This document shows positions 4,218 to 50,761 of a DNA stretch of 64,000 nt, in pieces. A program made the translations under genes and the position numbers. The notes beneath the pieces are model-generated. The model made no database searches. It saw only the letters and a program-made list of their open reading frames with translations, and had not been told where the DNA came from. The number at the start of each line of letters is the position of its first letter. Position 1 is the first letter of the stretch. This DNA is from Sphingomonadaceae bacterium (lineage in GTDB: Bacteria; Pseudomonadota; Alphaproteobacteria; Sphingomonadales; Sphingomonadaceae), in assembly GCA_947375105.1 (NCBI GenBank), contig CANCET010000002.1:10471-74470 (forward strand), read 5' to 3'.

Positions 4218-4227
4218 GGATTTTTCC

Positions 4228-5406
4228 TCAATAGCTCTTGGGCAGGCCGAGCACTTTCTCGGCAATGAAGCACATGATCAGCTGCTCGGTGATTGGCGCG
4301 AGGCGGGTCAGCGCGCTTTCCCGGTAGAGCCGCTCGACGTGGTACTCCTTGGCATAGCCAAAGCCGCCATGGGTGGCGACCGCCTGCCACGCTGCATCAT
4401 GGCAAGCGCGCGCGGCGAGGAACTTGCACGCATTGGCTTCGGCCCCGCAGGGCAGGCCCTGGTCATAAAGGCGCGCAGCCTTTTCGACCATCAGCCAGGC
4501 GCTCTCCAGATACATCCACTTTTCCGCAAGCGGGTGCTGGATACCCTGGTTCATGCCGATCGGCCGATCAAACACCACGCGTTCCTTCGCATAGTTCACG
4601 CCCCGCCGCAGCGCATCGCGCCCGATTCCAATGGCCTCGGCGCCGATGAGGATGCGTTCGGGATTAAGGCTGTGGAGGATGTAGCCGAAGCCCTTCCCTT
4701 CCTCGCCGATGCGGTCCTCGTCAGGAATGAACAGCCCGTCGATGAAGATCGCATTCGAATCCACCGCCTTGCGGCCCATCTTGTTGATCAGTCGCACATC
4801 AATCTTGGACCGGTCGAGATCGGTGTAGAAGATCGTGATGCCATCAGTCGGCCGGGCGCAGTCCTCGAACTTGGCCGTCCGAGTCAGAAGCATGATCTTG
4901 TTCGCGACTTGGGCGGTCGAGGTCCAGACCTTCTGGCCGTGGACCACATAACCCCCCGGCACTTTCTCGGCGAACGTCTTGATCCGCGTGGTGTTTAGCC
5001 CAGCGTCGGGCTCGGTAAAGCCGAAGCAGCACTGGTCCTCGCCCGAAACGAGCCGCGGGACCCAGCGCGCCTTCTGCTCCAGTGTGCCCTCCACCACGAT
5101 GGGGTGCGGGCCGAACAGGTTGATGTGGATGGTCGAAGCCGCCGCGAACCCGCCGCCGCAAGCCGCGACCTCACTCATCATCGTCATTGCCTCGGTCACG
5201 CCGAGGCCCGAACCGCCGAATTGCTCAGGCATGGTAATGCCAAGCCAACCGCCATCGGCCATCGCGCGGTGAAATTCGCGCGGGAACTCACCGTCATCAT
5301 CGCGTGCGAGCCAATAGTCATCGCCGAACGGCGCACAGGCGGCACGAACGCCTTCGCGGATAGCCTGAAGGTCTTCCTCGGTGGGAAGCGAGCGAGCTTG
5401 GGTCAT
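4228..5406 (-). CDS. Acyl-CoA dehydrogenase
   Basis: FGFTEPDAGLN, GQKVWTS, LNPERILI, THGGFGYAKEYHVER. Confidence 0.93.
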   Translation of the reverse strand: MTQARSLPTEEDLQAIREGVRAACAPFGDDYWLARDDDGEFPREFHRAMADGGWLGITMPEQFGGSGLGVTEAMTMMSEVAACGGGFAAASTIHINLFGPHPIVVEGTLEQKARWVPRLVSGEDQCCFGFTEPDAGLNTTRIKTFAEKVPGGYVVHGQKVWTSTAQVANKIMLLTRTAKFEDCARPTDGITIFYTDLDRSKIDVRLINKMGRKAVDSNAIFIDGLFIPDEDRIGEEGKGFGYILHSLNPERILIGAEAIGIGRDALRRGVNYAKERVVFDRPIGMNQGIQHPLAEKWMYLESAWLMVEKAARLYDQGLPCGAEANACKFLAARACHDAAWQAVATHGGFGYAKEYHVERLYRESALTRLAPITEQLIMCFIAEKVLGLPKSY

Positions 5407-22829: not shown

Positions 22830-23576
22830 ATGGGTAGATTGTCAGGCAAGGTCGCCATCATCACGGGTGCGTCGCAAGGCATGGGTGAAGCCCACGCAAA
22901 GGCCTTTGTTGCCGAAGGCGCCAGCGTGATCCTCACCGACATAAACGCCGTAGCTGGCGAAGCGCTGGCCGAGGCGCTGGGCAGCCAAGCCATGTTTGTG
23001 AAGCACGATGTCGCCAGCGAAGCCGGCTGGGCGGAAGTCGTTGCTGCCGGCGAAGCCCGCTTTGGTCGGGTCACCGTGCTGGTCAACAATGCCGGGATCA
23101 TCGGTACCATCGCCAAGACGGCTGACCTTTCAGCGGCCGATTTTGCACACGTCTGCGCGGTCAACCAGACTGGCGTGTTTCTGGGCATGCGCGCGGTCCT
23201 GCCCTCGATGATCGCCAGCGGCGGCGGCTCGATCGTGAACATCTCCTCGACCTCGGGCATGATCGCCAATGTCGGGACGCCCAATCTCGCCTATGCTGGC
23301 AGCAAGTTCGCGGTGCGGGGCATGACCAAGCAGGTCGCCGTCGAATACGGCGACCAGAACATCCGCGCCAATTCGGTCCACCCGGGCTACGTCAAAACTC
23401 CGATGATGGTCGCCGCGACCGATGAGGACGGAGGCGGCGCAGCGGCGGGTATCCCGCTCCGCCGTTTTGCGGAGCCTTCGGAGATCTCGCCACTGGTGGT
23501 GTTCCTTGCCTCGGACGAATCCTCGTTCATCACCGGCACCGAGCATGTCATCGACGGCGGCATGATAGTGTGCTGA
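22830..23576 (+). CDS. SDR, secondary/cyclic alcohol dehydrogenase type (3alpha,20beta-HSD / cyclopentanol dehydrogenase-like)
   Basis: MGRLSGKVAIITGASQGMG, VNNAG, YAGSK, NSVHPG, VIDGG. Confidence 0.88.
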   Translation: MGRLSGKVAIITGASQGMGEAHAKAFVAEGASVILTDINAVAGEALAEALGSQAMFVKHDVASEAGWAEVVAAGEARFGRVTVLVNNAGIIGTIAKTADLSAADFAHVCAVNQTGVFLGMRAVLPSMIASGGGSIVNISSTSGMIANVGTPNLAYAGSKFAVRGMTKQVAVEYGDQNIRANSVHPGYVKTPMMVAATDEDGGGAAAGIPLRRFAEPSEISPLVVFLASDESSFITGTEHVIDGGMIVC

Positions 23577-23601: not shown

Positions 23602-24573
23602 ATGATCACTGCTCAGGATTTCGCGTTCCACCCCCGTGACCCCGCGGATATGCAGTGGACCGAAACGCTGTTCCTGATCTTTTCGGTGCCCGAAGCGGGC
23701 ATCAGCGGCAATCTCTACAATCTGGCGCGGCCCAATCTCGGCGTCTGCCACAGCTCGATCGAGATCCACAAAGGGCTCAGCCTGCATCCCTGGCAGATCG
23801 AGCACAACGATGCGCAGATGCATTTGCCCTGCCCCGAGCGCTTCGAAGATTTCACGCTGGCCAATGGCCTGTCGTTTCAGGCGCACAGCGCCCGCGATTG
23901 CGCGTTCCAGTACCAGTCGCTCGATGGCAATTGCGCGCTCGACATCACCTACAGCGCTGTGTGCGATCCCTTCGATCCTCACGATGCGGCGGAGAACCCG
24001 CTGATCGCCTCGTCCAAGCTCGCCGGCTATGATGGCTGGAACACCGGCCATATGGAAAGCAAAGGCCGCGTGACCGGCACGCTCTCGCTTCACGGCCGCG
24101 AGTACAAGGTCGATTGCACCGAGGGCATGAACAAGAGCTGGGGCCCGCGCAAGGACTGGGGCAGCAAGGGCGGCACCTGGGTTCATGTCAACCTCGGCCC
24201 CGATCTCGGCGCATTCCTCGTCTTGGGACTCGAATTCGAGAACAAGGAGGTCGTCTACGGCCCCTTCAAGTTCGGCTACGTGGTCGTCGACGGCGAGCGC
24301 CGCCCCCTCGTTCGGGCAACCATGCGCGCGCAGCGGTTCGATATGCTGGTCACCCGCGCCGTGGTCGAGTTCGAAGACGACCGTGGCAATTGCTGGAACG
24401 CGGTCGGCACGACTGTTGCTGCCGCGCCGTGGTACAACTTCAATCCATCGAGCGCGGCTTTCCAGACCTTGATGCGCTGGGAAAGCGGCACCCGCGTCGG
24501 CCATAGCCACATCGCCGATTTCGCCGGCCTCGCGCACCTTTCGCGCGGGATGGCCGACAAACATGACACCTGA
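23602..24573 (+). CDS. Uncharacterised predicted tandem beta-barrel protein (tocopherol cyclase/AttH/CrtC-like), copy 1
   Basis: Beta-strand-like pattern; WTETLFL, GTLSLHGREYKVD, MNKSWGPR (cf. the EKNWG/DHxWG motif of this superfamily). Confidence 0.6.
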   Translation: MITAQDFAFHPRDPADMQWTETLFLIFSVPEAGISGNLYNLARPNLGVCHSSIEIHKGLSLHPWQIEHNDAQMHLPCPERFEDFTLANGLSFQAHSARDCAFQYQSLDGNCALDITYSAVCDPFDPHDAAENPLIASSKLAGYDGWNTGHMESKGRVTGTLSLHGREYKVDCTEGMNKSWGPRKDWGSKGGTWVHVNLGPDLGAFLVLGLEFENKEVVYGPFKFGYVVVDGERRPLVRATMRAQRFDMLVTRAVVEFEDDRGNCWNAVGTTVAAAPWYNFNPSSAAFQTLMRWESGTRVGHSHIADFAGLAHLSRGMADKHDT

Positions 24574-24601: not shown

Positions 24602-25819
24602 ATGATCGACGACAGCATCCGGCAGCATCCCAGCGATGCCTTCATCGAAGCGGTCCGCGCGCGGTTTCCCACCGAGCGCGAAGTGGACACCGTGCTCACC
24701 CGCAAGATGCGCCGCCGCAATGGTCCTTCGTTTCAGGCGGTCGGGTTGGAAACGCTCGTTGATGGCACAGAGCGCCTGATCACCAATCAGGTCGGCTATC
24801 CGGTCCGCATCGCTGATGCGCGCTGGCTTTCCGGCGGCGCATCCAAGCTTCAGATGCTGTTCAACCTCCAATGGCGCGGCGAGAACGCCAATGGCCAGGC
24901 GCAAGTCGTCACACCAATGGTGCTGCGCATGGAACCGGCCGCTTCGGTTACAGAGTCGAGCCGTCGGCGCGAGTTCGAAGTGATCCGCGCGGTCGCGGGC
25001 ACCGTGCCAGTCCCGCATGCCTACTGGATGGACCCAGACGCCCAGTTCCTGCCCTATCCGGCGATGATCTATGGCTTTGCCGCCGGCACAGCGAAGCCTT
25101 CGCACGATGCTGGCAAAGTCACCGGCCTCGGCCAGAACTATGGGCCGGAGCTGCGTGCCAAGCTGGCACCGCAGTTCATCGAATACCTTGCCCGCATCCA
25201 TAACCTTCCTATCGGCGCGCCGCCGGTGCTCGCCAGCTTCGACCGGCCGGAAGTGGGCTCGAATGCGTCGGTCATCCGGCAGGTCAATGCTGCGCGGCGC
25301 ATCTGGGAGGAAGACCGGATCGAGGACGAACCGGTCATGGCAGTGGTCTACAAGTGGCTCATCCGCAACGCCCCGCCAATCGACCATATCTCGATCGTCC
25401 ATGCCGACTATCGCAGCGGCAATTTCCTGTTCGATGAAGCGAGGGGCGAGATCACCGCATGGCTCGATTGGGAAGGTGCTGTGCTGGGCGACCGGCATCA
25501 GGACCTGACATATGCAGCGCTGCCGATCTTCCAGCATTATGCCGAAGATGGCGAGACGATCCTGGTCTCGGGGATGATGCCCGAGGCAGAGCTTTATGCC
25601 GCCTATGAAAAGGCCTCAGGCCTGCCGGTCGATCCGGTTCGCATCCGCTATTTCGGCGTGTTCAACCGCTATCTCGTCTCGGTGCTGCTGCTCGCAGCCT
25701 CGACCCGGGCGGCACGCGGCGCGGCAACCCATCAGGACGTGCTCCTCAACCATGTTGCCGGAATGGGCTACCTCGCCCTCTCCGATCTGCTCGGCAATTT
25801 ACGGAGTGCGACGGCATGA
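24602..25819 (+). CDS. APH/choline-kinase-fold phosphotransferase (LvaA / ACAD10-11 kinase-like), copy 1
   Basis: LSGGASK loop, REFEVI, HADYRSGN, LDWE, GDRHQDL. Confidence 0.88.
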   Translation: MIDDSIRQHPSDAFIEAVRARFPTEREVDTVLTRKMRRRNGPSFQAVGLETLVDGTERLITNQVGYPVRIADARWLSGGASKLQMLFNLQWRGENANGQAQVVTPMVLRMEPAASVTESSRRREFEVIRAVAGTVPVPHAYWMDPDAQFLPYPAMIYGFAAGTAKPSHDAGKVTGLGQNYGPELRAKLAPQFIEYLARIHNLPIGAPPVLASFDRPEVGSNASVIRQVNAARRIWEEDRIEDEPVMAVVYKWLIRNAPPIDHISIVHADYRSGNFLFDEARGEITAWLDWEGAVLGDRHQDLTYAALPIFQHYAEDGETILVSGMMPEAELYAAYEKASGLPVDPVRIRYFGVFNRYLVSVLLLAASTRAARGAATHQDVLLNHVAGMGYLALSDLLGNLRSATA

Positions 25820-26319
25820 ACCAGGATTTCGAAACGCAGTTGCAAGTGGTCCAGCGCGCGCTAGGCGAGGTGGTGCTTCCCGCTCTTGGGAGCGCTGACA
25901 AGCATGTGATCGAACAGCTCCACCTCTCGCTTGCCGCGATCGGCTTCATGCAGCAGCGCGTCCCGCTCGCGCGCCAATACTATCGCGGCACGCTTGAGCG
26001 CTATCTGGCTATGGCAGGCGCGGTCGCGGCGCTACTTGACGCTGACGCGGAGAGCCTCGCAGACCAGTCGAAGCAAAGCAAAGCAGTGCTGGACGATCCG
26101 GCCGCCTCGGACGCCGATCTGCGCGCCGCGACTGCCACGTTGCGAGCCGGCGTTGCTGCGCTTGTCGAAGCCGCGAAGGATACGCCGCAAGAGAGTGCGC
26201 TCGATGCGCTGGTCTTGGAATACAGCGAGGCAATCCTGAGCGAAGACCGCTCGTGGTGCATCCCGCTGGGCTTCGAACTGCGCCCCGAAGATCTGCCCAA
26301 GCCTGACTGGCAACCCTAA
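25816..26319 (+). CDS. Small helical protein coupled to the kinase (LvaB-like), copy 1
   Basis: ATGA overlap with the kinase; N-terminal QLQVVQRALGEVVLPAL pattern. Confidence 0.6.
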   Translation: MNQDFETQLQVVQRALGEVVLPALGSADKHVIEQLHLSLAAIGFMQQRVPLARQYYRGTLERYLAMAGAVAALLDADAESLADQSKQSKAVLDDPAASDADLRAATATLRAGVAALVEAAKDTPQESALDALVLEYSEAILSEDRSWCIPLGFELRPEDLPKPDWQP

Positions 26320-29453: not shown

Positions 29454-32051
29454 TCAGAACTTGGCGCCGACTTCGAGGCCGAACTGGCGCGGTGCTGCAC
29501 GGATACGGTAGTCACTGCCGTAGCTGCCCTCGACGTTGATTGCGTTGGGGTAGTAGAGCTTGTTGGTCAGGTTCTTGACGTAGCCGGCGATGCTGAAGTG
29601 CTGCGTCGTGTAGGAGATCCGGCCATTGATCAGCCAGTACGGCGCCTGGCCTTCACCCAGCGGGCCCCGTGCCGAATTGACCGAGCTGCCCTGCGGCCCG
29701 ACATAGTCATACGAACCGAACACGTCGTAGTAATACCGGCCGGTGTAGCTGGTATCGGCATGGACCGTGAACGTGCCCGCATCTGTCTTGTAGGCATCCC
29801 AGTCCAACCCGATGTTGCCCGAAACCTTGCTGGCATAGGGGAACGGATTGCCACCCACGTCGATCTTGCCGCCGCCGGTCGAGATGCAGTTACCAACCTG
29901 AGGCGGCGTGCCGCTGATCGGTGCGGTCGGGCAAGCGCCGTTGTCGAACTTGCTGTCGAGCACGCCGAGGCCGGCGTTAAAGCGGACGGTATCGGTTACA
30001 GCAAAGACGAGTTCCGCGTCTAGGCCGGTCAGCTTCCCATCGAGATTGATCAGGAAGGTCACCGAGCTCGGATCGAGCAGCTGCTGCTGCTGCGCCTTGT
30101 ACTTGTAGTGGAACGCCGACAGGTTGAACTGCAGGCGGTTGTCGAAGAAACGGCTCTTAATACCCACTTCGAAAGCATCAACCTTTTCTGGCTGAACGAA
30201 GTAGACCTGAGCGGCATTCTGGAAAGCCAGTCCGTTGTAGGTGCCCCCGCGATAGCCGCGGCTGTAGCTGGCATAGAGCAGCATGCTCTCGGTCGGCTTC
30301 CAGTCGATGATCGCACGGCCCGTGAGCGCGTTCGAGCCATCGCGGCGGTTGAGCGGCTTGATGCTCTTGTCGAGCGCCGCATTGTCACCGATGAAGTACT
30401 TCGAGAGCACGCCGCCGGGCGCATAGTCTGACACGGTGTAGAGGCGCGCCGCGCCAGTATCGTCGTAGAACGTGGTGAGCGCGTCGAGGTAGGCGAACTT
30501 GTCCTTGGTGTAGCGCAGACCGGCGGTGAGCTTGACCGTGTCGGTCAGTTCATAGCTGGCCTCGCCATAGATCGCGTAGGACTTGCGCTCCTGGGTGTAA
30601 TTCTGCGTGGCCTTCAGCGCGGTTGCCATGCCGCCCTCGCGACCGAGGCCAGCGGGGTTGAAGTAGGTCTTGGGATTGCCGATCGCGGCGTTCACGTCGC
30701 TGAGGAAGCCGTAGAAATCAGGCGTGTTGTTGGTGACGATCTTGTCCCAGCCATAATAGACGCCCGCGATCGCCTTGAACCGGCCGCTCGAATAATCGAG
30801 GCGCAGATCCTGGTTGAAGCTGCGCGAGGCCGAGGCATAGCCGATCGAGCACACGTTGTAGGGCGTACCGTCGCAGTCGATGCGGGGCAGCAGGCCATTG
30901 CGCGTGCGGTCGAAGCCGGTGATTGAGGTGAGGTTGACCTTGTCGCCAAGCTCGAACTTGGCGTTGAGCACGATACCGAAGGTCTTGGTCTCGGCCGTGC
31001 CGATCGAGTTGCCCTCGATCTGGCGGTCGGTCAGGCCGCGGCCCTTGGCGCTGTAGGCGGGCGGGAGGTACTTGGTGAGGTCCTGACCATTGCCGAACAA
31101 CGTGCTTGCAAGCGGCGTGTAGAAGAAACCGAACGCCGAATCTGCAAGGCTGATCGTGTCATTGGTCAGCGAGGGACCATGGTTCTGCGGTGAATCCTGC
31201 CCGCCGACCGACTGAGCCACATAAGCCTTGAGGTTGAGATCTACCCGGTCGCTGGGCTTGAAGCGGATCTGCCCGCGAATGCCCCACGATTCATGTCCGC
31301 CCGGCGAGATGCCCGCGTTCTTGTCACCGAAGGCGACATTGTCGGGAACATTGGAGTTGGACTTGATCAGGCCGACAGGCTGCACGTTGCGGACGTAGGG
31401 ATCAGAGTCGACATAGCTTCCCGCGATCCGGATACCGAGCTTGTCCTCAATCGGAGTGACTTCGATCGCGCCTTGCGCACTGATGCGGTTGAATGAGCCG
31501 TAACCGAGCGTGACGGCCCCATTCTGGCCCTGCAGCTTAGGCTTGCGGGTGATGAAGTTGATCGCGCCACCAGTGGTGTTACGCCCATAGAGCGTACCCT
31601 GGGGGCCGCGTACGACTTCCAACTGCTCAAGGTCGAACAGCTGCTGACCGTGGCTGGCGCGGAACGACTGGTACACTTCGTCGACGTAGATGCCGACCGG
31701 CGAAGCGGCGTTGGAGTTGTACTCGGTTCCGACGCCGATGCCGCGCACGGTGAAGTTTGGCTGCGTTTCGCCGTAGGCCGAGCTGACCTGCAGGTTCGGG
31801 ATCGAATTGTTGAGGTCGGTCGTGGAGAACACGCCCTGCTTAGTAAGCTGAGCCGCATTCACGGCGGTGATCGCCACCGGCACGTTCTGAAGGTTTTCGC
31901 TCCGCTTGGTCGCAGTCACGATGATTTCGCCAAGGCCCTCGGCCGGCGCGGCCTGCTCAGGCTGAGGCGCAATCTGCGCATGAGCCGTCGTGGCCAGCGA
32001 AAGAACGCTCGCTGAAACAAGCGCAGCGCGAAGAATGGTAGACCTTGACAT
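29454..32051 (-). CDS. TonB-dependent receptor 2
   Basis: Signal peptide, EIIVTATKRSENLQ, VVRGPQGTLYGRNTTGGA, C-terminal VGAKF. Confidence 0.95.
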   Translation of the reverse strand: MSRSTILRAALVSASVLSLATTAHAQIAPQPEQAAPAEGLGEIIVTATKRSENLQNVPVAITAVNAAQLTKQGVFSTTDLNNSIPNLQVSSAYGETQPNFTVRGIGVGTEYNSNAASPVGIYVDEVYQSFRASHGQQLFDLEQLEVVRGPQGTLYGRNTTGGAINFITRKPKLQGQNGAVTLGYGSFNRISAQGAIEVTPIEDKLGIRIAGSYVDSDPYVRNVQPVGLIKSNSNVPDNVAFGDKNAGISPGGHESWGIRGQIRFKPSDRVDLNLKAYVAQSVGGQDSPQNHGPSLTNDTISLADSAFGFFYTPLASTLFGNGQDLTKYLPPAYSAKGRGLTDRQIEGNSIGTAETKTFGIVLNAKFELGDKVNLTSITGFDRTRNGLLPRIDCDGTPYNVCSIGYASASRSFNQDLRLDYSSGRFKAIAGVYYGWDKIVTNNTPDFYGFLSDVNAAIGNPKTYFNPAGLGREGGMATALKATQNYTQERKSYAIYGEASYELTDTVKLTAGLRYTKDKFAYLDALTTFYDDTGAARLYTVSDYAPGGVLSKYFIGDNAALDKSIKPLNRRDGSNALTGRAIIDWKPTESMLLYASYSRGYRGGTYNGLAFQNAAQVYFVQPEKVDAFEVGIKSRFFDNRLQFNLSAFHYKYKAQQQQLLDPSSVTFLINLDGKLTGLDAELVFAVTDTVRFNAGLGVLDSKFDNGACPTAPISGTPPQVGNCISTGGGKIDVGGNPFPYASKVSGNIGLDWDAYKTDAGTFTVHADTSYTGRYYYDVFGSYDYVGPQGSSVNSARGPLGEGQAPYWLINGRISYTTQHFSIAGYVKNLTNKLYYPNAINVEGSYGSDYRIRAAPRQFGLEVGAKF

Positions 32052-42665: not shown

Positions 42666-42697
42666 TACCAGTGGGTATTGATTTAACCCAGTGGGTT
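42666..42697. promoter_or_regulatory. Second candidate operator: two CCAGTGGGT-containing inverted repeats 20 bp apart
   Basis: TACCAGTGGGTA (42666-42677) and AACCCAGTGGGTT (42685-42697). Confidence 0.5.
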
Positions 42698-42706
42698 TTC
42701 TATGTT

Positions 42707-42747
42707 TCAACATATGTGTTGATTCGACCTTATGTCGAGCGCAAAAT
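42707..42747 (+). promoter_or_regulatory. Operator site D (42707-42722) overlapping a putative TTGATT-N17-CAAAAT promoter
   Basis: TCAACATATGTGTTGA; -35 at 42719-42724, -10 at 42742-42747. Confidence 0.68.
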
Positions 42748-42792
42748 GCGGCCCAAGCAGCGCCGGAAGAATTGATCGAAGGGATCTCAAGG

Positions 42793-44418
42793 ATGTCCGA
42801 GCCTGCCAGCGCTGCAATCAAGGCAGACTACGATGCTGTCGTGGTCGGCGCGGGCTTTGCCGGGCTCTACATGATCCACAAGCTGCGCGGCCTCGGCCTC
42901 TCGGTCCTCGCGTTCGAAGCGGGCAGCGGTGTCGGCGGAACGTGGTTCTGGAACCGCTACCCCGGCGCACGCTGCGACGTGTACAGCCTCGAATACTCCT
43001 ACTCGTTCGACGCAGGGCTGCAGCGAGAATGGGTCTGGAGCGAGCGCTATCCCGCGCAGGCTGAGATCCTGCGTTATATCGAGCACGTGGCCGACCGGTT
43101 CGATCTGCGCCGTGACATCCGCTTCAACACCCGTGTTGCTTGTGCGCACTATAACGAGCCCGCAAACCTCTGGAGCGTCGAGACGGAGACCGGCGAGGTC
43201 GTAACCGCTCGCTTCTGCATCATGGCCTCGGGTGCGCTCTCCGCCCCCCGCAAGCCCGACTTTGCGGGCCTCGATGACTTTGGGGGCAACTGGTATCACA
43301 CTGGGCACTGGCCGCACGAGCCGGTCGATTTTACCGGCCAGACTGTTGCAGTGATCGGCACGGGCTCCTCGGGCATCCAAGTCACGCCGATGGTCGCCCA
43401 GCAGGCAAAGCGCCTGTTAGTATTCCAGCGCACCCCGAACTTCAGCATCCCGGCCTGGAACCACCCGCTGCCCGATCACGTGCAGGACGCATGGAAGCGC
43501 GATGCCGCACAGCTACGGGCCAAAGCCAAGGCGACGAAATCAGGCGCACTCTATGAGTATGGCCAGCGCGGCGCATTCGAGGTGAACGACGAAGAGCGCC
43601 AGCGCGAGTTCGACGCACGCTGGGCGCGGGGCGGTGCCAATTTTACCCATGCGTTCAACGACCTGTTCAAGGACAAGGCAGCCAACGATCTCGCGGCAGA
43701 CTATGTACGCGGCAAGATCCGGGAAATCGTGAAAGACCCGGCCGTCGCGGCAAAACTGACCCCCACCGACCACGCTATCGGCACCAAGCGCATTTGTGTC
43801 GACACCGACTACTACGCGACCTTCAACCGCGAGAACGTAACGCTGGTCGATGCGCGCGAGACCCCGATCACCCGCATCACGCCGGCGGGCATTGAAACCT
43901 CTGGCGGCCAGTACGCGGTGGACAGCATCGTGTTCGCTACCGGATACGACGCTGTGACTGGCGCGCTCACCCGCATCGACATCCGCGGGCGCGGCGGCGT
44001 CTCGCTTGCGGAGAAATGGCAAGACGGGCCCAAGACCTATCTCGGCCTTATGGTCGCCGGTTTTCCCAACCTGTTCACGATCACCGGCCCTGGCAGCCCC
44101 TCGATCCTGACCAATGTGGTCATGGCGATTGAGCAGCACGTCGATTGGGTCGGCGATTGCCTTGCCTATATGGCAAGCCAAGCCGCAGCGACAATCGAGG
44201 CTGAACCCAAGGCCGAAGAAGACTGGGTGGACCACGTGCGCGAAGTGGCTGAGGCGACGCTGCATGTGCAGGCCAACAGCTGGTACATGGGTGCGAACAT
44301 CCCCGGCAAACCGCGCGTTATGCTGCCCTATGTCGGCGGACTGGGCGTCTATACCGGCATCTGCAACGACATTGCAGCCGATGGCTATCGCGGCTTTGCC
44401 ATGGCGCGCGGGGGCTGA
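42793..44418 (+). CDS. Type I Baeyer-Villiger monooxygenase (CHMO/PAMO-like)
   Basis: GAGFAG, GGTWFWNRYPGARCD, FGGNWYHTGHWP, GTGSSG, GTKRICVD, ATGYD. Confidence 0.94.
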   Translation: MSEPASAAIKADYDAVVVGAGFAGLYMIHKLRGLGLSVLAFEAGSGVGGTWFWNRYPGARCDVYSLEYSYSFDAGLQREWVWSERYPAQAEILRYIEHVADRFDLRRDIRFNTRVACAHYNEPANLWSVETETGEVVTARFCIMASGALSAPRKPDFAGLDDFGGNWYHTGHWPHEPVDFTGQTVAVIGTGSSGIQVTPMVAQQAKRLLVFQRTPNFSIPAWNHPLPDHVQDAWKRDAAQLRAKAKATKSGALYEYGQRGAFEVNDEERQREFDARWARGGANFTHAFNDLFKDKAANDLAADYVRGKIREIVKDPAVAAKLTPTDHAIGTKRICVDTDYYATFNRENVTLVDARETPITRITPAGIETSGGQYAVDSIVFATGYDAVTGALTRIDIRGRGGVSLAEKWQDGPKTYLGLMVAGFPNLFTITGPGSPSILTNVVMAIEQHVDWVGDCLAYMASQAAATIEAEPKAEEDWVDHVREVAEATLHVQANSWYMGANIPGKPRVMLPYVGGLGVYTGICNDIAADGYRGFAMARGG

Positions 44419-44419
44419 C

Positions 44420-46033
44420 ATGCAACCGCCCACCAGCCGAACTTTCCCGGAACTCCTGCGCGAACTGGCTGCCGTTGCGCCGGATCGGTGCGCGGTCATA
44501 GATGGCGCCGTCTCGGTCACTTACGCCAGCCTCGCGCAGCGCGCCCATTTGGTCACGAACGCGCTAAAAGGAGCAGGCGTAAAGCGCGGCGACCGGGTCG
44601 GTGTGCTCTTGTCGAACCGGATCGAATGGCTCGAGATCTTCTTCGGTGCGAGCGCGGCGGGCGCTGTCGTCGTGCCGATCAGCACCTGGTCCAAGCCCGC
44701 AGAGCTTGAATTCATTCTGAGCGACGGCGGTGTCTCGGTGCTGTTTGCGATGCCGTCTTCGGGCAAGGAAGACTTCTTTGCCGCGCTGAACATGCTGGTT
44801 CCCGAGGCTATCGAGCAGAATCAATGGGTCAGCGCGCGCCTGCCTGCTCTGCACCTGCTCGTTGCCATGGCAACCACCGCGCCCGGCGCGGGATGGTGCA
44901 CCCACAACGGGTTCTGCACCGCAGCGTCCGATATGCCGCTTGGCGACGGACCAGACCCGGCCGACGACGCGCTCATTCTCTACACTTCGGGCTCGACCAG
45001 CAAACCCAAGGCCGTCCGCCTTGCGCACGGCGCGCTGATCGAAAACGGTTTCAACATCGGCGGGCGCATGGGCCTCGCGGCCAACGACAGGGTATTTGTC
45101 TCGGTCCCGCTGTTCTGGGCCTATGGCTCAGCCAATGCGCTCCCCGCCGCAATGAGCCACGGCGCAGCGATCGTCCTGCAGGACCGGTTTGAGCCAGGCG
45201 GCGCGCTGGCGCTGATTGAGCAGCACCGCTGCACGGCAATCTACACCCTGCCGACAATGACCAGCGCGCTGATCGCACACGAGGACTTTGCTCTGGCCCG
45301 CACGGCCAGCCTCAGAACCGGGCTCACGATCGGCAGCCCGCAGGATGTGATGGCTGCGGCCACAGGGCTGGGCGCGGCACATATCTGCAACATCTACGGA
45401 TCGAGCGAGACCTGCGGCAATTGCTGCGTCACGCCGTGGGATTGGCCGCTGGACCGCCGCGCAGCTTGCCAGGGTCCGCCGCTCCCGGGTGTCAGCCTGC
45501 GGCTCGTCGATGCTGAAACCGGGGCAAAGGCCGAACCGGGCCAGCCCGGGCTCATCGAGGTGACGGGCTACCTCATGGCTGGCTACGGGGGGCAGAGCGC
45601 CAGCCACAACGCCGCCGCTTTCACAGCGGACGGGTGGTATCGCACCGGAGACCTTGGTCAGTTGTCTGATGATGGAGACCTGATCTTCCTTGGTCGCGCA
45701 ACGGAGATGATCAAGCGCGCCGGGATCAATGTCTCCCCCGCTGAAGTCGAGGACGTGCTGCTGCAGCATCCGGCAGTGGCGCAAGTCGCCGTGGTCGGCG
45801 CGCCCGATCCTGCGCGCGGCGAGATCATCGTCGCGTTCGTGGTCACAACGAAGCCCGCAACCGAAGCCGAGCTCATCGCGCATGCCCGGACGATTGCATC
45901 GACCTACAAGGTGCCCGACCGGATCGTGTTCCGAACGAAACTTCCCGCGACCGCCACCGGCAAGTTGCAGCGCCAGCCGCTCAAGGCGGAAGCCGCAGCC
46001 CTCAGCGCAAAGGATAAAGCCCATGTCGCGTGA
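44420..46033 (+). CDS. Acyl-CoA synthetase (AMP-binding)
   Basis: YTSGSTSKPK, YGSSE, YRTGD, EMIKRAGINVSP, GKLQR; start at MQPPTSR. Confidence 0.9.
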   Translation: MQPPTSRTFPELLRELAAVAPDRCAVIDGAVSVTYASLAQRAHLVTNALKGAGVKRGDRVGVLLSNRIEWLEIFFGASAAGAVVVPISTWSKPAELEFILSDGGVSVLFAMPSSGKEDFFAALNMLVPEAIEQNQWVSARLPALHLLVAMATTAPGAGWCTHNGFCTAASDMPLGDGPDPADDALILYTSGSTSKPKAVRLAHGALIENGFNIGGRMGLAANDRVFVSVPLFWAYGSANALPAAMSHGAAIVLQDRFEPGGALALIEQHRCTAIYTLPTMTSALIAHEDFALARTASLRTGLTIGSPQDVMAAATGLGAAHICNIYGSSETCGNCCVTPWDWPLDRRAACQGPPLPGVSLRLVDAETGAKAEPGQPGLIEVTGYLMAGYGGQSASHNAAAFTADGWYRTGDLGQLSDDGDLIFLGRATEMIKRAGINVSPAEVEDVLLQHPAVAQVAVVGAPDPARGEIIVAFVVTTKPATEAELIAHARTIASTYKVPDRIVFRTKLPATATGKLQRQPLKAEAAALSAKDKAHVA

Positions 46034-46904
46034 TGCCTGGGGTCGCTGGGGCGAAGCCGACGAGGTCGGCGCGCTCAATCTCGTCGGCACGAGCGAAGTG
46101 CTCGGCGCTACCGGCCTCGTCCGGCAGGGCCGGGTCGTGAGCCTCGCACAGCCGCTGTCGAAGAAGACCCCGGTTCCCAGCAACCGCACCGGCCTCCTCC
46201 ATTTCATGGACCGCGACGGCGGCGACTATGCGGCCGGAGCACGCATTTCCAACGGCTTCCAATTTGCCGACGACAGCGTGGTCATGCCGCTCCACATCGG
46301 CACGCATATCGACGCGCTGTGCCATGTGTGGACTGAGGATCAGCTCTACAACGGCCATCCCGGATCGGGCACGAACAGCACGCACGGCGCGAAAAAGTGC
46401 GGCGTGGAAAAGCTGCCGCCCATCGTCACGCGCGGGTTGCTCCTTGATGTGGCGGCGCTGCATGAAGCGCCTCTGCCATTCGGCTATGCGATCGGGGTGG
46501 ACGAAATGAAAGAGGCCGCCAGCCGCGCAGGAGTGACTCCCGCGATTGGCGATGCCGTTCTGATCCGAACGGGATGGCAGGAAAATCAGGCGGGCAAGCC
46601 TGCACAGACGGTCGATTTCAACGAGGAGCCGGGCATAGACGTTGAGGCTGCGCTCTGGCTTGCCGAGGCCGGCGTTTCGCTCGTCGGCGCGGACAACTAT
46701 GCGATCGAGGCCATGCCCTTTCCCGCAGGCACAACCTTCCCCGTCCATCAGCGCCTGATCCGCGACTTCGGCATTCCGCTGCTTGAAGGCCTCGTGCTGC
46801 AGGACTTCGCCGCGCTCGGTGTGCCCGAGTTCCTGTTCGTCGCCGCGCCGCTGCCGATCGTCGGTGGAACCGGCAGCCCGATCACCCCGCTGGCGATTTA
46901 TTGA
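46023..46904 (+). CDS. Cyclase-family metal-dependent hydrolase, copy 2
   Basis: WGRWGEADEVGALN, LHIGTHIDALCH, GADNYAIE, LLEGLVL. Confidence 0.87.
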   Translation: MSRDAWGRWGEADEVGALNLVGTSEVLGATGLVRQGRVVSLAQPLSKKTPVPSNRTGLLHFMDRDGGDYAAGARISNGFQFADDSVVMPLHIGTHIDALCHVWTEDQLYNGHPGSGTNSTHGAKKCGVEKLPPIVTRGLLLDVAALHEAPLPFGYAIGVDEMKEAASRAGVTPAIGDAVLIRTGWQENQAGKPAQTVDFNEEPGIDVEAALWLAEAGVSLVGADNYAIEAMPFPAGTTFPVHQRLIRDFGIPLLEGLVLQDFAALGVPEFLFVAAPLPIVGGTGSPITPLAIY

Positions 46905-46908
46905 TCCC

Positions 46909-47934
46909 ATGACCGTGGACGCCCATGAGCCGGATAGGGCCGCACGGCAGGTCGCCGATGGGCTGGCGCAGCTTGTGCGCCATGCGATCCCCTCGGCGCA
47001 GGATATCGCCTTCACGGGCCTCACCCGCTCCGCCGGCGGCCTCAGTCGGGAGAACTGGTCGTTTGATGCCAGCTGGCACGATGCGGAAGGAGGCCACACA
47101 CATCGGCTGATGCTGATGCGCGATGCCAAAGGCACTCTGCTGAAGACCGAACGCAGCCGCGAGTTCGATGTGCTGAGGGCACTGCAAGGCAGCCCCGTGG
47201 CGGCACCGGCGGTGTTCTGGATGGATCCCGATGGGCAGTTCCTCGGCGCGCCCTCGCTGATCATGGAGCGCGTTTCAGGCCGCTGCGACTATATGGTGCT
47301 GAATGGCGCACAGCCATTGAATGAGCGGCTGGAACTCGCACATGCCTTTCTGCAACTGCTGACCGATATTCAGACGATCGACTGGCAGACACGCGGCCTC
47401 GGGCCCAGCCTCGGCGTACCTGAAGGCTCGCCGGCCCAGATCGTGCTCGATGAGTGGGAGACGGAGTATCGCCGTGTGCAACTAGAGCCCCATCCGGAGC
47501 TCGATTATGTTTTGGCGTGGATGCGCCGCGCGGCCCCGCAAGCGCAAGCCATTGTTCTCGTCCACGGCGATTTCAAACCGGGCAACGCGCTGATCGAGGG
47601 CACACGGATCACCGCCAAGCTCGATTGGGAGACCGCGCATCTGGGTGATCCGCTCGAAGACCTCGGCTGGATCACCAATCCCGTGCGGCGGCGCGAACAC
47701 CAGATCCCCGGTCATTGGGAACGTGCGCAGATCGTCGAAGCCTATACCCGCCTGACCGGCCGCGCAGTGGGCGACGCTGCTCTGACATGGTGGAACGTGT
47801 TCTCGTGCTGGAAGCTGGCGGTGATCCAGCTGACGGCCGTCAACGAGTTCGTCTCGGGCCGCTACAACCGCGTGTTCCAGACTCCCTCGTGGCTCTTCCG
47901 CCCCATGCTCCAGATGATGGAGCGCGCGACATGA
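46909..47934 (+). CDS. APH-fold phosphotransferase (LvaA / ACAD10-11 kinase-like), copy 2
   Basis: AGGLSRENW, REFDVL, HGDFKPGN, LDWE, GDPLEDLGW. Confidence 0.88.
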   Translation: MTVDAHEPDRAARQVADGLAQLVRHAIPSAQDIAFTGLTRSAGGLSRENWSFDASWHDAEGGHTHRLMLMRDAKGTLLKTERSREFDVLRALQGSPVAAPAVFWMDPDGQFLGAPSLIMERVSGRCDYMVLNGAQPLNERLELAHAFLQLLTDIQTIDWQTRGLGPSLGVPEGSPAQIVLDEWETEYRRVQLEPHPELDYVLAWMRRAAPQAQAIVLVHGDFKPGNALIEGTRITAKLDWETAHLGDPLEDLGWITNPVRRREHQIPGHWERAQIVEAYTRLTGRAVGDAALTWWNVFSCWKLAVIQLTAVNEFVSGRYNRVFQTPSWLFRPMLQMMERAT

Positions 47935-48398
47935 GGCCCTCAGTCGAAGAGCAGCTACTGGGCACGTGCCACATTCTCGAAACCGTCGTCGCGCCGGCTG
48001 TGGCCGAGCCCTTCGCACGCACCATTCTCGACAGCCTCATCGCGAACTTGCGCATGGTCACCGAAGCGCTGCCCGCCGTGCCGGGCTTCCTGCGCTGGGA
48101 CAATGCGGCGACGCAGGACCTGCTGCACAAGCTGCGCAGCGAGCTGCCTTCCGATCTCGCCCGGCGCATCGACACTGCGCTGGAAACCCCCGAACCCGAC
48201 ATGCTCGACAGCGCTGCGCAGACCGCGCGCAACGACTTGCTGCGCGCTATGCTCGCTGAAGCCGTCTGCAGCCCGGATCTGGCCCCCGATCTGCACCGTG
48301 CCATTCAGCAACACATGATCGCTCGCGCCTCACGCGCACCGATGCGTTACGTGCCGACCGCCGTTCCCCCCGCACCCACGCCCACCACGAGACCGTAA
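47931..48398 (+). CDS. Small helical protein coupled to the kinase (LvaB-like), copy 2
   Basis: ATGA overlap with the kinase; N-terminal EQLLGTCHILETVVAPAV. Confidence 0.6.
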   Translation: MRPSVEEQLLGTCHILETVVAPAVAEPFARTILDSLIANLRMVTEALPAVPGFLRWDNAATQDLLHKLRSELPSDLARRIDTALETPEPDMLDSAAQTARNDLLRAMLAEAVCSPDLAPDLHRAIQQHMIARASRAPMRYVPTAVPPAPTPTTRP

Positions 48399-48402
48399 AC
48401 CC

Positions 48403-49530
48403 ATGCTTACCGCGCTTGACGATACGCTTTGGCACCAGTTGCCGACAACATTCGATCACGTCTGGACCAGCGACCCCCGGTTCTTCGACCGCTACTGGTT
48501 CGCGATCTATTCGGGCGATGGGCGGGTCGCGATCCAGATCACCATGGGCGCCTATCGCAACATGAACGTGCTGGATGCCGGGGCGGTGATGATCGTCGAT
48601 GGCAAACAGTACAACCTGCGTGTCTCGCGCTCGCTCAATGGCAGCGTGGAGACGGTCTGCGGCCCGATCCGCATCACGCCCATCGAGGCACTGCAGACGC
48701 TCGATATCGTGATCGAGCCCAGCGAAGGCGTGCTTCACGGCCGCATCCGCTGGGACGGTGTGGAGCCCGCGCACGAGGAGCATCCCCACTACACTCGCCT
48801 GCAAAGCCGCACGGTCGAGGACTATCGTCGCTTCGATCAGATCGGCGTGGCCAGCGGCTATCTGGAGGTCGAGGGCCAGCGTGTCGAGATCGACAAATGG
48901 TGGTCCTGCCGCGACCATTCCTGGGGCGTGCGGCGCGGCATGGGCGTGCCCGAACCAGTCACCGGCCCCAAGCTTCCCCTCTCCGAGAAAGGCCACGTCA
49001 TGGCCTTCCTGTTCTTCTCCACCACCGCCGTGAGCGGCAGCCTGCTTTTCTCCGGGCGCGGCGATGATACGCCCTATACCACCGGCGTGCTCACCTTGCG
49101 CGAGACTGAGACGGCGCACGATGTGACCCAGATCGCGCTTGAGGTCGATCTTCACGAAGGCACCCGCCGCTTCCGCCGCGCCGCCGTCGTTGCACAGTTG
49201 GAGGGCGCCGGCGAACTTCGGCTGGAGCTCGATGCGCAGGGCGCCTCGATCGCGATGCAAGGCCTTGGTTACAGCGGCGGCTTCAACGATGGGCGCGGGC
49301 TCGGCGCGTGGCGGGGCGAGACCTGGCTCGAAACCGATGTGTGGGATGTGTCACACCCCGCCAAGGTGATCTATCCGGACGGTACCGAGAAGGTTCACTG
49401 GCACCGCATCCAGCCCGTCTCCATCGCGGCAAGCCTGAACGGGGAAACCAGCCAAGGCACCGGCAGCATGACGCTGACCATTGCGGGGCAGCTTCCCGCG
49501 CATCTGCAAGTCCAGTCCGCTTCCATCTAG
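48403..49530 (+). CDS. Uncharacterised predicted tandem beta-barrel protein (tocopherol cyclase/AttH-like), copy 2
   Basis: FFDRYWF, GPIRITPIE, SGYLEVEGQRVEID, RDHSWGVR. Confidence 0.65.
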   Translation: MLTALDDTLWHQLPTTFDHVWTSDPRFFDRYWFAIYSGDGRVAIQITMGAYRNMNVLDAGAVMIVDGKQYNLRVSRSLNGSVETVCGPIRITPIEALQTLDIVIEPSEGVLHGRIRWDGVEPAHEEHPHYTRLQSRTVEDYRRFDQIGVASGYLEVEGQRVEIDKWWSCRDHSWGVRRGMGVPEPVTGPKLPLSEKGHVMAFLFFSTTAVSGSLLFSGRGDDTPYTTGVLTLRETETAHDVTQIALEVDLHEGTRRFRRAAVVAQLEGAGELRLELDAQGASIAMQGLGYSGGFNDGRGLGAWRGETWLETDVWDVSHPAKVIYPDGTEKVHWHRIQPVSIAASLNGETSQGTGSMTLTIAGQLPAHLQVQSASI

Positions 49531-49546
49531 ACCGCAGGAGACCCGC

Positions 49547-50761
49547 TTGTTCGCATGCGTGCTTGCCGAAGTGCTGCGCCCCGGCGACCGCGTGGTCGTG
49601 GGCCAGGCGACGAGCGAGCCGGTGGGGCTGGTAGAGGACCTGTTTGCGGCAGCAACGCATATCGATGATCTGTCCGTATTCTGCGGCTACTCGCTGAACC
49701 CGGCATGGAAGGACGCAGTGCCGGATACGCTGCAGGTCATTTCCTATTGCGGGCTCGGCGCGATAGGTGCGCTCACTCTGCATGGCCGCGCCAAGGTCAT
49801 CCCCTTTGCCATGTCGCAATTGAGCGCCGCGCTGGCTGCGCGCACACTGCCGGTGGATGTGGTGCTGCTGCAAGTCTCCCCCGCCGATGCCGATGGCTAT
49901 CACAGCCTCGGACTTGCCGCCGACTATGTCTGGGAAGCGGCGCAACTGGCGCGGGTCGTTGTCGCCGAAGTCAATGCGCGCGTTCCGATAACCCGCAGCC
50001 AGTGCCGCCTCCACTGCAGTCAGATCGTTATCGCACGCACATGCGATACTCCGCTGCCCGAAGTGCGGCCTGAACCGGTTGGCGAAGTGCAGACGCGTGT
50101 TGCGCGCGAAGTGGCAAAGCTGGTCCCCGATGGCGCGACCGTGCAAATCGGCATTGGCAAGCTTTCCGATGCGATAGCCCATGCGCTGCGGGATCGCCGC
50201 GGCCTCAAGGTGCGATCAGGCATGGTGGGGGACTGGTTCCCCTCGCTGGTGGCTGCGGGGGCGATCGACACCAGCACGCCGGATGCCTGCCTCGCCTCGC
50301 TCGCAGTGGGCAGCAGCGCGCTTTACGATTGGCTGGACTGCAGCAATCTCCTGGGCTTTGCGCTCCCCGAACACCTGGCTGTGCCCGTCCGCGATTCTCC
50401 GTTTATGGCGATTAACTCGGGCATCGAGGTGGACTTGCGCGGCCAGGTCAACGCCGAATTCCTGGGGCACCGCTATGTCGGTGCCTCGAGCGGGCAACCA
50501 GACTATTTCCGGGCCGCGCAGCGTTCCGCGGGTGGCCTCGCAATCCTTGCTTTGCCCTCAGCCAACGAGCGCGGTGATGTGAGCCGCATCGTCCCGCGCC
50601 TCGCGAGCGGCTACGTCACCTCCGCACAGAGCGACGTGGATGTGATCGTCACCGAACAGGGCATAGCCGATATCCGCGCCACCGATTTTGGCGAACGCCG
50701 CCGCCGGATAACGGCAATTGCCGATCCGCGCATGCGCGGCGCACTCAGCCCCGAGGAATGA
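49547..50761 (+). CDS. Acetyl-CoA hydrolase/transferase family protein, copy 2 (catalytic Glu apparently replaced by Gly)
   Basis: DGATVQIGIG, INSGIEVDLRGQ, DVDVIVTEQG; RSGM where HSEM is expected; TTG start after AGGAG inferred. Confidence 0.82.
   Translation: MFACVLAEVLRPGDRVVVGQATSEPVGLVEDLFAAATHIDDLSVFCGYSLNPAWKDAVPDTLQVISYCGLGAIGALTLHGRAKVIPFAMSQLSAALAARTLPVDVVLLQVSPADADGYHSLGLAADYVWEAAQLARVVVAEVNARVPITRSQCRLHCSQIVIARTCDTPLPEVRPEPVGEVQTRVAREVAKLVPDGATVQIGIGKLSDAIAHALRDRRGLKVRSGMVGDWFPSLVAAGAIDTSTPDACLASLAVGSSALYDWLDCSNLLGFALPEHLAVPVRDSPFMAINSGIEVDLRGQVNAEFLGHRYVGASSGQPDYFRAAQRSAGGLAILALPSANERGDVSRIVPRLASGYVTSAQSDVDVIVTEQGIADIRATDFGERRRRITAIADPRMRGALSPEE

Follow-up and report, generated by a model that had tools for sequence, protein, structure and literature searches.

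Two kinase-linked two-barrel proteins of a Sphingomonadaceae bacterium as probable phosphate-eliminating lyases related to 25-phosphosteroid lyase

Tertiary alcohols cannot be oxidized directly, and are hard to dehydrate. To our knowledge, only one dedicated biological solution for the dehydration of tertiary alcohols has been characterised, in an anaerobic sterol degrader. The two proteins described in this work are encoded in a stretch of 64,000 nucleotides (hereafter, the window) of a Sphingomonadaceae bacterium (assembly GCA_947375105.1, contig CANCET010000002.1, positions 10,471 to 74,470 of the forward strand), and are called copy 1 (323 amino acids, 23602-24573, + strand) and copy 2 (375 amino acids, 48403-49530, + strand). 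Their CHARACTERISED relative is 25-phosphosteroid lyase (25-PSL) of Sterolibacterium denitrificans. In this bacterium, ATP is spent on dehydrating the side chain of cholesterol at its tertiary C25 alcohol, and two enzymes share the task. The 25-hydroxysteroid kinase (25-HSK, 40 kDa), a member of the phosphotransferase family, forms a high-energy 25-phosphoester, from which a separate C-O lyase removes the phosphate, leaving the delta-24 alkene (PMC7411048, PMC8449060, PMC11061730). In 2021 the lyase gene was still unidentified, and reported to be "not in the vicinity" of the kinase gene in Sterolibacterium (PMC8449060). Structures of 25-PSL were released in the PDB in January 2026 as entries 9fzn, 9g2i (with phosphate) and 9g4c (with phosphate and the alkene product, desmost-1,4-diene-3-one), and these entries now give the lyase a name. 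In the lva system, an APH-type kinase phosphorylates the hydroxyl of 4-hydroxyacyl-CoA, and a second enzyme eliminates the phosphate (PMC11342911); the kinase, LvaA, requires a small 12-kDa partner, LvaB, by which it is bound (PMC6692424). We estimate at about 0.65 the probability that copy 1 and copy 2 are both phosphate-eliminating C-O lyases of the 25-PSL kind, each paired with an adjacent APH-type kinase.

Structure models were built with AlphaFold on alignments of 26 copy-1 relatives (A1) and of 56 copy-2 relatives, down to 23% identity (A2). The pLDDT is 93.4 for copy 1 and 92.0 for copy 2, the pTM 0.91 for each, and both models consist of two consecutive beta-barrels, arranged as in the AttH-type double barrel. 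The top Foldseek matches of both models in the PDB are the three 25-PSL entries. Copy 2 matches 9g4c and 9fzn with an E value of 1.3e-25 and TM values of 0.80/0.83, copy 1 matches 25-PSL with an E value of 5e-13 and TM values of 0.64-0.67/0.58-0.60. Further matches of both models include AttH (2ich), kievitone hydratase (7a0t, 7a0q) and the Diels-Alderases Fsa2, Phm7, CghA, 7dmn and 7dmo, with E values from 1e-7 to 1e-10 and TM values of about 0.45-0.57. The original prediction, made from the letters of the window, had placed the two proteins in the superfamily of AttH and tocopherol cyclase. The AttH-type double barrel is borne out by structure prediction and by the matches to AttH, kievitone hydratase and the Diels-Alderases; no tocopherol cyclase is found among the Foldseek PDB matches listed or in the Pfam scan results, and no comparison was aimed at this enzyme. 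The relatedness of copy 2 to 25-PSL is also evident at the sequence level. In phmmer searches copy 2 matches 9fzn with an E value of 3.8e-29, and the A2 profile aligns to 25-PSL along the full length (2-367/5-361) with an E value of 1.5e-88. A phmmer search of the PDB with copy 1 yielded nothing but a chance match to monellin.

Copy 2 falls into the NCBIfam family NF053593 ("Rv3169 family") with a score of 254.1 bits (cut-off 150; E 1.9e-75), and the match covers positions 1-344 of the 351 in the profile. In Pfam, copy 1 matches DUF7064 with 34.6 bits (gathering score 24.7, E 2.6e-8), and DUF7065 with 26.1 bits, just below the gathering score of 27 (E 1e-5); copy 2 has 23 bits for DUF7065, below the same score, and no match to DUF7064. 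Precomputed DUF7065 and DUF7064 domains are present on many close homologues of both copies. The Pfam model of CrtC, PF07143, matches neither protein at E values up to 1. All the near-invariant polar residues of the copy-2 family (family 2) within the aligned stretch (residues 2-185) are present in 25-PSL, namely D6, H11, Q12, D24, D29, N53, D58, Q69, R73, S75, R76, E126, R143, Q146, R170, D171, S173, W174 and R177. The segments RDHSWGVR and FFDRYWF of copy 2 have in 25-PSL the counterparts RDRSWGVR and FYDRYYF. H11, D29, R143, R170, D171, S173, W174 and R177 are thus carried by both copy 2 and 25-PSL; copy 1 retains the corresponding H10, E21, S179, W180 and R183, but carries H150 and N177 at the positions of R143 and D171, respectively. 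Five arginines are invariant or near-invariant in family 2 (R73, R76, R143, R170 and R177), and such an abundance of conserved arginines fits anion binding. Copy 2 is a member, not described before, of the 25-PSL/Rv3169 family, and copy 1 is representative of a separate, uncharacterised clade (DUF7065 + DUF7064).

Close homologues of either open reading frame number in the hundreds, are nearly all annotated as "hypothetical protein", and reside chiefly in Sphingomonadales and Burkholderiales. The start codons of both open reading frames fit the consensus starts of the families (MLTxLDD and MITxxD). The proteins had attracted attention for sharing an SWG motif. The motif is RDHSWGVR in copy 2 (residues 170-177, 48910-48933, + strand) and MNKSWGPR in copy 1 (residues 176-183, 24127-24150, + strand), and in both proteins marks the end of the last strand of barrel 1 (strands E159-176 and E166-182 of the respective models). 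A GxLxxxGxxxxxD hairpin precedes the motif in both proteins (GYLEVEGQRVEID and GTLSLHGREYKVD). In the N-terminal region copy 2 carries the strand FFDRYWF (48481-48501, + strand), which includes the conserved acid D29, and copy 1 the strand WTETLF (23656-23673, + strand), in which E21 and T22 are invariant in 26/26 family-1 sequences. Motif strings, N-terminal strands and hairpins had all been pointed out in the original prediction, and are found in the two open reading frames as it described them.

No significant similarity between copy 1 and copy 2 is detected by pairwise BLASTP. When A1 and A2 are compared by hhalign, the probability is 96.4% (E 1.4e-9) in the local mode and 98.1% (E 5.4e-13, 295 columns) in the global mode, and both runs pair RDHSWGVR with MNKSWGPR, and FFDRYWF with WTETLF. 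As judged from profile comparison, the only approach in which the relationship is visible, the two families are clearly homologous. Ten columns host the same residue, conserved at a level of at least 85%, in both families: H11/H10, N53/N45, four glycines, and the S, W, G and R of the motif. Residues D29-R30 of copy 2 are aligned with E21-T22 of copy 1 in the global run; position 29 is Asp in 50/56 and Glu in 4/56 of the family-2 sequences, and E21 is found in 26/26 of the family-1 sequences. The family-2 motif can be written as RD[HR]SWG[VIL]R (R170 55/56, D171 56/56, H/R172 56/56, S173 56/56, W174 53/56, G175 56/56, R177 54/56), the family-1 motif as [DN][KRH]SWGPR, with S179, W180, G181, P182 and R183 each in 26/26 sequences, D in 18 and N in 8 sequences at position 177, and K, R or H at position 178. 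The SWGxR core is carried by 81 of the 94 full-length representatives obtained by clustering at 50%. According to these column counts the motif strand is the most conserved stretch of both families, extends beyond SWG, and includes two basic residues. The idea that conservation of alternate residues may mark one functional face of the strand was dropped, since essentially all motif positions are conserved. A third SWG-type string, SWGIR, found at about 31289 on the - strand, is a chance occurrence within the open reading frame of a TonB-dependent receptor (29454-32051). Because of this string, and of the non-significant BLASTP comparison, the short motif taken alone is not beyond chance, and not diagnostic.

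Both barrel genes are physically associated with a kinase gene. At locus 2, an APH-family small-molecule kinase (kinase 2, 341 amino acids, 46909-47934, + strand; Pfam PF01636, E 4.5e-28; motifs HGDFKPGN and DWE) is followed by a small helical protein (partner 2, 155 amino acids, 47931-48398, + strand), the start of which overlaps the kinase stop (ATGA) and the end of which is 4 nucleotides away from copy 2. At locus 1, the order is short-chain dehydrogenase, copy 1, kinase 1 (APH family, 405 amino acids, 24602-25819, + strand; PF01636, E 1.1e-23; motifs HADYRSGN and DWE) and partner 1 (167 amino acids, 25816-26319, + strand), again starting at an ATGA overlap with the kinase stop. The kinase motifs HxDxxxxN and DWE can be read in both enzymes. 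The window includes two APH kinases, two small helical open reading frames and two barrel proteins, all of which fall in the two contiguous triples, and none elsewhere. The two kinases are 28% identical (E 2e-29). The two small helical proteins yield nothing significant when compared to each other by BLASTP; profiles of their orthologues are aligned by hhalign with a probability of 97.6% (E 3e-12, 130 columns). Since kinases, small proteins and barrels are all paralogous between the two cassettes, the whole cassette goes back to an ancient duplication.

The small helical proteins make up an all-helical family of about 120-180 amino acids, with an N-terminal pattern that roughly reads L-x-x-V-(V/A)-P-A-(V/L)...(E/D)-Q-L. 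The family spans from Proteobacteria to Acidimicrobiia and Chloroflexota, and in both cassettes its member is translationally coupled to the APH kinase. The profile of the family finds no relative in Pfam or the PDB, where only coiled-coil noise is returned. By analogy, the small protein may be a kinase subunit comparable to LvaB. The nearest solved relatives of the kinases are 3dxp, 9o56, 9fsg/9ft5/9fu5, the kinase domain of ACAD11, and 3ats (Rv3168). Hydroxy-lipid and hydroxyacyl-CoA kinases (3dxp, ACAD11, 9fsg, Rv3168) are better matches than antibiotic kinases. Entries 9fsg/9ft5/9fu5, labelled "aminoglycoside phosphotransferase-like protein" (379 amino acids), rank as the best or the third-best solved relative of the two kinases; their accession codes are near those of 25-PSL, and the protein may be 25-HSK itself.

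The linkage to kinases extends well beyond the window. Relatives of copy 2, 45-97% identical, were surveyed at 80 genome loci of Sphingomonadales, Burkholderiales, one gammaproteobacterium, Pseudonocardia, Acidimicrobiia, Chloroflexota, Myxococcota and Spirochaetes. A neighbouring APH kinase is found in 78 of these, and in the other two the contig ends at that point. The small helical open reading frame is detected by tblastn in 49/80 loci. By direct inspection of open reading frames, a small one is found between kinase and lyase in nearly all the loci whose kinase runs in the same direction, also in those of remote Acidimicrobiia and Chloroflexota at which tblastn fails. Relatives of copy 1, 38-97% identical, were surveyed at 78 metagenome loci. 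A kinase is present in 66. Flanking sequence is sufficient at 61 loci, and at 48 of these the kinase immediately follows the copy-1 relative; in most of the remaining loci the kinase is upstream, or a few kb off. Other neighbours of the copy-2 relatives vary. A CoA-transferase-like gene follows in 33/80 loci, and a short-chain dehydrogenase is found in 30/80; a Baeyer-Villiger monooxygenase, a ligase and a "cyclase" are found nearby in Sphingomonadales only. Because of this variation, the conserved unit is best viewed as made of kinase, helical partner and barrel. The CoA-transferase-like gene also follows the lyase gene in Burkholderiales loci in which the oxygenases are missing, and may be a fourth, semi-conserved member of the cassette. 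Copy-2 orthologues (45-47% identity) reside, along with the kinase and a partner of about 120 amino acids, in many Acidimicrobiia genomes that bear the label of the sponge symbionts "Candidatus Poriferisocius" (loci L059-L083), and a short-chain dehydrogenase usually follows these cassettes. Sponge sterols or terpenoids would be natural substrates in these hosts.

The motif strand can be traced to hydratases of the CrtC/AttH type. PF07143 is absent from 41 related genomes, and a set of 35 PF07143 (CrtC/AttH) proteins was therefore gathered from 400 genomes of the phylum, selecting open reading frames of AttH loci by a DHGxH signature. All 13 of the closest AttH-type sequences carry the strand W-[LFM]-D-R-E-W-S, which is the best-conserved motif of the set; more distant PF07143 proteins vary at this strand (D-H-x-W-G, D-R-Q-Y-G). 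Some PF07143 subgroups (L163-L204, from other Pseudomonadota) carry H-K-E-W-G-S or S-K-E-W-G-S, and the loss of the Asp suggests that they are non-hydratase offshoots. The hhalign comparison of A2 with the PF07143 set (92.2%, E 5.8e-7, 222 columns) places D171 on the Asp and W174 on the Trp of the strand; A1 is aligned in the same register at lower confidence (48%, E 1.8e-4). In the CrtC of Rubrivivax, Asp268 is essential, is the proposed proton donor, and lines the inter-barrel cavity, and W283 and W285, close to it, stabilise the carbocation (PMC4717167, PMC12402844). The AttH Asp is spaced +15/+17 from an invariant W-D-W (G-W-D-W), exactly as Asp268 is from W283/W285. Given the shared Pfam family and the identical spacing to the W-x-W pair, the Asp of the AttH strand plausibly corresponds to Asp268; a true CrtC, with an H-x-W ... 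Y-x-D signature, was not found among the 35 proteins. Compared to the W-x-D-R-E-W-S strand of hydratases, the putative lyases would keep Asp and Trp, have Ser in place of Glu, and have gained Arg residues, among them a terminal one. Such changes are expected if phosphate, and not water, is the leaving group.

The motif lies at the junction of the two barrels. It ends the last strand of barrel 1, and coincides with the boundary of the Pfam domains, DUF7065 ending at residue 183 of copy 1 and DUF7064 beginning at residue 185. The polar members of the motif (D/N, the basic residue, Ser and Arg) match its Gly and Trp in degree of conservation, and are all present in 25-PSL. Homology, conservation and strand topology, three indirect lines of evidence, favour an active-site role for the motif strand. 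The likely active site envisaged in the original prediction is hence supported, as far as sequence and predicted structure allow, both by conservation and by the alignment to the strand hosting the catalytic Asp of CrtC.

From the fold, the homology, the conservation of the motif and the kinase linkage described above we infer reaction, residue roles and substrate class as follows. The kinase, probably assisted by the coupled small helical protein, would use ATP to phosphorylate a hindered hydroxyl, most likely tertiary, of a lipophilic substrate, terpenoid- or steroid-like and possibly a CoA ester. The two-barrel protein would take the phosphoester into the inter-barrel cavity and expel phosphate, and removal of a neighbouring proton would yield an alkene. 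The net result would be an ATP-driven dehydration, out of reach of a simple hydratase. In the model proposed the [D/N]-[basic]-S-W-G-x-R strand at the barrel junction forms the core of the site. Ser, Arg and the basic residue of the motif may hold the leaving phosphate. For proton abstraction there are three candidates: the motif Asp, whose counterpart in CrtC hydratases is catalytic, the N-terminal His that is invariant (H11/H10), and the acidic residue D29/E21 of the N-terminal strand. Since each copy is tied to its own kinase, the chemistry is most likely ATP-dependent, and proceeds via a phosphoester. The original prediction had left the function open among hydratases, cyclases and lyases acting on isoprenoids. 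The lyase option, in the form of phosphate elimination, is the one favoured here, while a cofactor-free hydratase or cyclase is not the best reading, because 25-PSL is by far the closest structure and because of the linkage to kinases. The functional class should be narrowed accordingly, from hydratase/cyclase/lyase to kinase-dependent phosphate lyase.

Hints on the substrates come from the neighbouring genes. A short-chain dehydrogenase gene lies directly upstream of copy 1 (22830-23576, + strand; adh_short_C2, E 5e-60; start set at the first Met before TGASQGMG). TonB-dependent receptors, a CoA ligase, an enoyl-CoA hydratase and a luciferase-like monooxygenase are encoded near the same locus. 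In the copy-2 operon, Pfam identifies upstream a Baeyer-Villiger monooxygenase, an acyl-CoA synthetase and a "cyclase"-family hydrolase (42691-46904, + strand), and downstream a CoA-transferase-like protein and a CYP101-family P450 (49481-52002, + strand). The Baeyer-Villiger monooxygenase (42691-44418) has its best matches in steroid monooxygenase and phenylacetone monooxygenase (E 1e-195). The CoA-transferase-like gene (49481-50761), which follows copy 2 directly, encodes AcetylCoA_hydro N- and C-terminal domains. The P450 (50758-52002) is closest to CYP101D2, CYP101D5 and CYP101D1 (E 1e-139 to 4e-145, the latter for CYP101D2), which are camphor-hydroxylating enzymes, and matches P450cam with an E value of 1e-120. 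A divergent TetR regulator, an FMO-type monooxygenase and an esterase adjoin the operon. Taken as context only, these genes point to alicyclic or terpenoid compounds, possibly as CoA esters. A third gene of the Rv3169 family, with the segments RDRSWGVR and FYDRYFF, is located on another contig of the same genome (3.6 Mb, 294 contigs). The paralogue and its kinase are found at 2525-3592 (-) and 3586-4698 (-); the start of the paralogue overlaps the end of an EcKL/APH-type kinase gene, and the small helical gene is missing in this instance. A phage-type integrase fragment (82-1023, minus strand) is found about 1.5 kb from the third paralogue, which may thus sit on a mobile island.

Several observations weigh against assigning both proteins to the kinase-dependent lyases. 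Copy 1 scores only 15.2 bits on NF053593, for which the cut-off is 150, hence is a superfamily relative, and not a member, of the Rv3169 family, and its identity to 25-PSL is only about 14%. Copy 1 moreover carries Asn at the position of the motif Asp; N is found there in 8 members and D in 18, so that family 1 cannot depend on a general base at position 177. Most of the 80 copy-2 loci hold orthologues, and common ancestry thus accounts for some of the conserved synteny. In the characterised system itself the two genes are not neighbours, the lyase gene of Sterolibacterium lying away from the kinase gene (PMC8449060), and adjacency therefore does not define it. Finally, the host is aerobic and oxygenases are encoded in the very operon, and the rationale of the anaerobic pathway is therefore not directly transferable. 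Given the Asn of copy 1, some other residue has to act as the base in family 1, most obviously the invariant H10 or E21.

Phosphorylation might serve a different outcome. The two proteins might trigger carbocations by loss of phosphate, the cation being captured by an internal nucleophile or water, leading to cyclisation, ether formation or allylic transposition, as in terpene cyclases. The linkage to kinases fits this scheme as well as it fits elimination, and the relatives by fold include cyclising and pericyclic enzymes (Fsa2, Phm7, CghA). The Trp equivalent to the cation-stabilising W285 of CrtC is apparently kept, W193 being invariant in family 1 (PMC12402844), and a position at which one might look for a base is taken by Asn in copy 1. 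We consider this outcome unlikely, as the only characterised relative carries out a plain elimination to alkene (9g4c with desmost-1,4-diene-3-one; PMC7411048), and copy 2 keeps all the family-invariant residues checked against 25-PSL. Similarly improbable is that the proteins, without any cofactor, act directly on the double bonds or alcohols of isoprenoids as hydratases, dehydratases or cyclases, the kinases serving another step. The AttH/CrtC/kievitone hydratase fold, the profile link to PF07143 (92%, E 5.8e-7) with conserved Asp and Trp in the motif strand, and a terpenoid-type operon featuring a CYP101 P450 and a Baeyer-Villiger monooxygenase would all suit such enzymes. Yet, the CrtC Pfam model does not match either protein at E up to 1, Ser replaces the Glu of the D-R-E-W strand and an invariant Arg is added, copy 2 has TM values of 0.80-0.83 to 25-PSL and of 0.45-0.51 to hydratases, and the near-obligate association with kinases across phyla would be left unexplained.

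The SWG strand might be purely structural, closing barrel 1 and packing against barrel 2, with the active-site residues located elsewhere. The Gly and Trp of the motif are typical packing residues, its position is at a domain junction, and among the ten columns shared by the two families there are four further glycines. Conservation is however just as strong at the polar positions of the motif as at Gly and Trp, and the equivalent Asp is catalytic in CrtC (PMC4717167, PMC12402844), which makes a mere structural role very unlikely. Even more doubtful is that kinase and barrel form a detoxification or resistance pair, in which an antibiotic or toxin would be inactivated by the APH kinase, the product then being bound or further processed by the barrel protein. 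The APH family includes many antibiotic kinases, and MphH and hygromycin kinase are weak matches of kinase 2 (E 3e-8 to 3e-5), but the better matches are of the hydroxy-lipid or acyl-CoA type, and the neighbours are catabolic genes (CoA ligase, Baeyer-Villiger monooxygenase, P450, esterase, short-chain dehydrogenase, TonB receptors). A role of the kinases in antibiotic modification was set aside for this catabolic context, and because the closer kinase relatives act on hydroxy-lipids. A Diels-Alderase role of the barrels was set aside as well, for want of a polyketide context.

The assignment of copy 1 and copy 2 to kinase-dependent phosphate lyases lends itself to a broader scenario, which is tentative, and taken as a whole rather doubtful. 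According to it AttH/CrtC hydratases and the lyases coupled to kinases make up one large superfamily, with the D-[H/R]-x-W-G strand as its ancestral carbocation-handling centre. In the lyases, the opening step of the CrtC reaction would proceed in reverse, with phosphate in place of water as the leaving group. The three-gene cassette would be a widespread, portable, ATP-driven "tertiary-alcohol dehydratase", in which the small helical protein would be an obligatory kinase subunit, representative of a new family. Aerobic freshwater and sponge-associated bacteria would plug the cassette into different oxygenase pathways, and clear in this way dead-end tertiary alcohols of terpenoids and sterols. 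Terpineols, linalool, geosmin and 2-methylisoborneol are possible candidate substrates.

The window suggests that the kinase-lyase solution is modular and is found in aerobes, as it occurs here twice, in deeply diverged forms, and with an unannotated helical component. What sets the window apart from the known system is copy 1, the cassette of three genes, one of which encodes the helical partner, and the aerobic setting among genes of terpenoid type. A shortlist of residues amenable to testing is provided by H11/H10, by D29/E21, and by the D/N-basic-S-W-G-x-R strand; these residues connect mechanistically the lyases to the cofactor-free CrtC/AttH hydratases. If the assignment is correct, a function would be provided for large "hypothetical" families (DUF7064, DUF7065 and the Rv3169 family, including the pair of M. 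tuberculosis), and enzymes would become available for the selective conversion of terpenoid alcohols to alkenes.

Among known systems, the fungal decalin-forming Diels-Alderases (Fsa2, Phm7, CghA, 7dmn/7dmo) resemble the proteins of the window in the two-barrel fold (Foldseek E 1e-8 to 1e-10), but TM values are only 0.45-0.55, a sequence relation is not detectable, and the two differ in setting, as no polyketide context is found here and no phosphate is involved there. AttH, CrtC and kievitone hydratase share with the window proteins the two-barrel fold, a homology detectable at the profile level, and the strand D-[R/H]-x-W-[S/G] with the catalytic Asp of CrtC, and their chemistry also takes place at tertiary carbons of isoprenoid-like substrates. 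In contrast to the lyases, hydratases need neither ATP nor a kinase, and their strand features Glu where the lyases have Ser, and is devoid of the terminal Arg. The lva system (LvaA/LvaB and LvaC), as ACAD10 and ACAD11, follows the same logic of phosphorylation and subsequent elimination. As in the window, an acyl-CoA ligase and a short-chain dehydrogenase are encoded nearby in the lva operon, and, by analogy only, LvaB may be likened to the small gene coupled after the APH kinase. In LvaC, ACAD10 and ACAD11, however, phosphate is eliminated by a flavin acyl-CoA dehydrogenase, and not by a two-barrel protein. The pair Rv3168/Rv3169 of Mycobacterium tuberculosis is akin to the cassettes in that Rv3169 gives the name to the NCBIfam family of copy 2, and 3ats is among the solved relatives of both kinases. 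The genes of Rv3168 (an APH-type kinase, 3ats/3att) and Rv3169 are adjacent in M. tuberculosis and are not known to be separated by a small helical gene; the pair is not known to have an assigned function.

The system formed by 25-PSL and 25-HSK remains the one to which the window can be most closely compared. The fold is the same, and copy 2 has in common with 25-PSL also the NCBIfam family and the motifs RD[HR]SWGxR, FxDRY and DDxxxHQ. A kinase of the phosphotransferase family, about 40 kDa in Sterolibacterium (PMC8449060), is the partner in both instances, and the proposed net reaction is in both an ATP-driven dehydration. Differences are marked as well. Copy 2 is about 24% identical to 25-PSL in structural alignment, and about 40% in the N-terminal half. 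In the window, kinase and lyase genes are adjacent, and accompanied by a third, helical protein, while the genes of Sterolibacterium are apart (PMC8449060). The anaerobic sterol pathway of Sterolibacterium includes molybdenum hydroxylases, whereas the cassettes described in this work reside in an aerobe, within an oxygenase-rich, terpenoid-like island.

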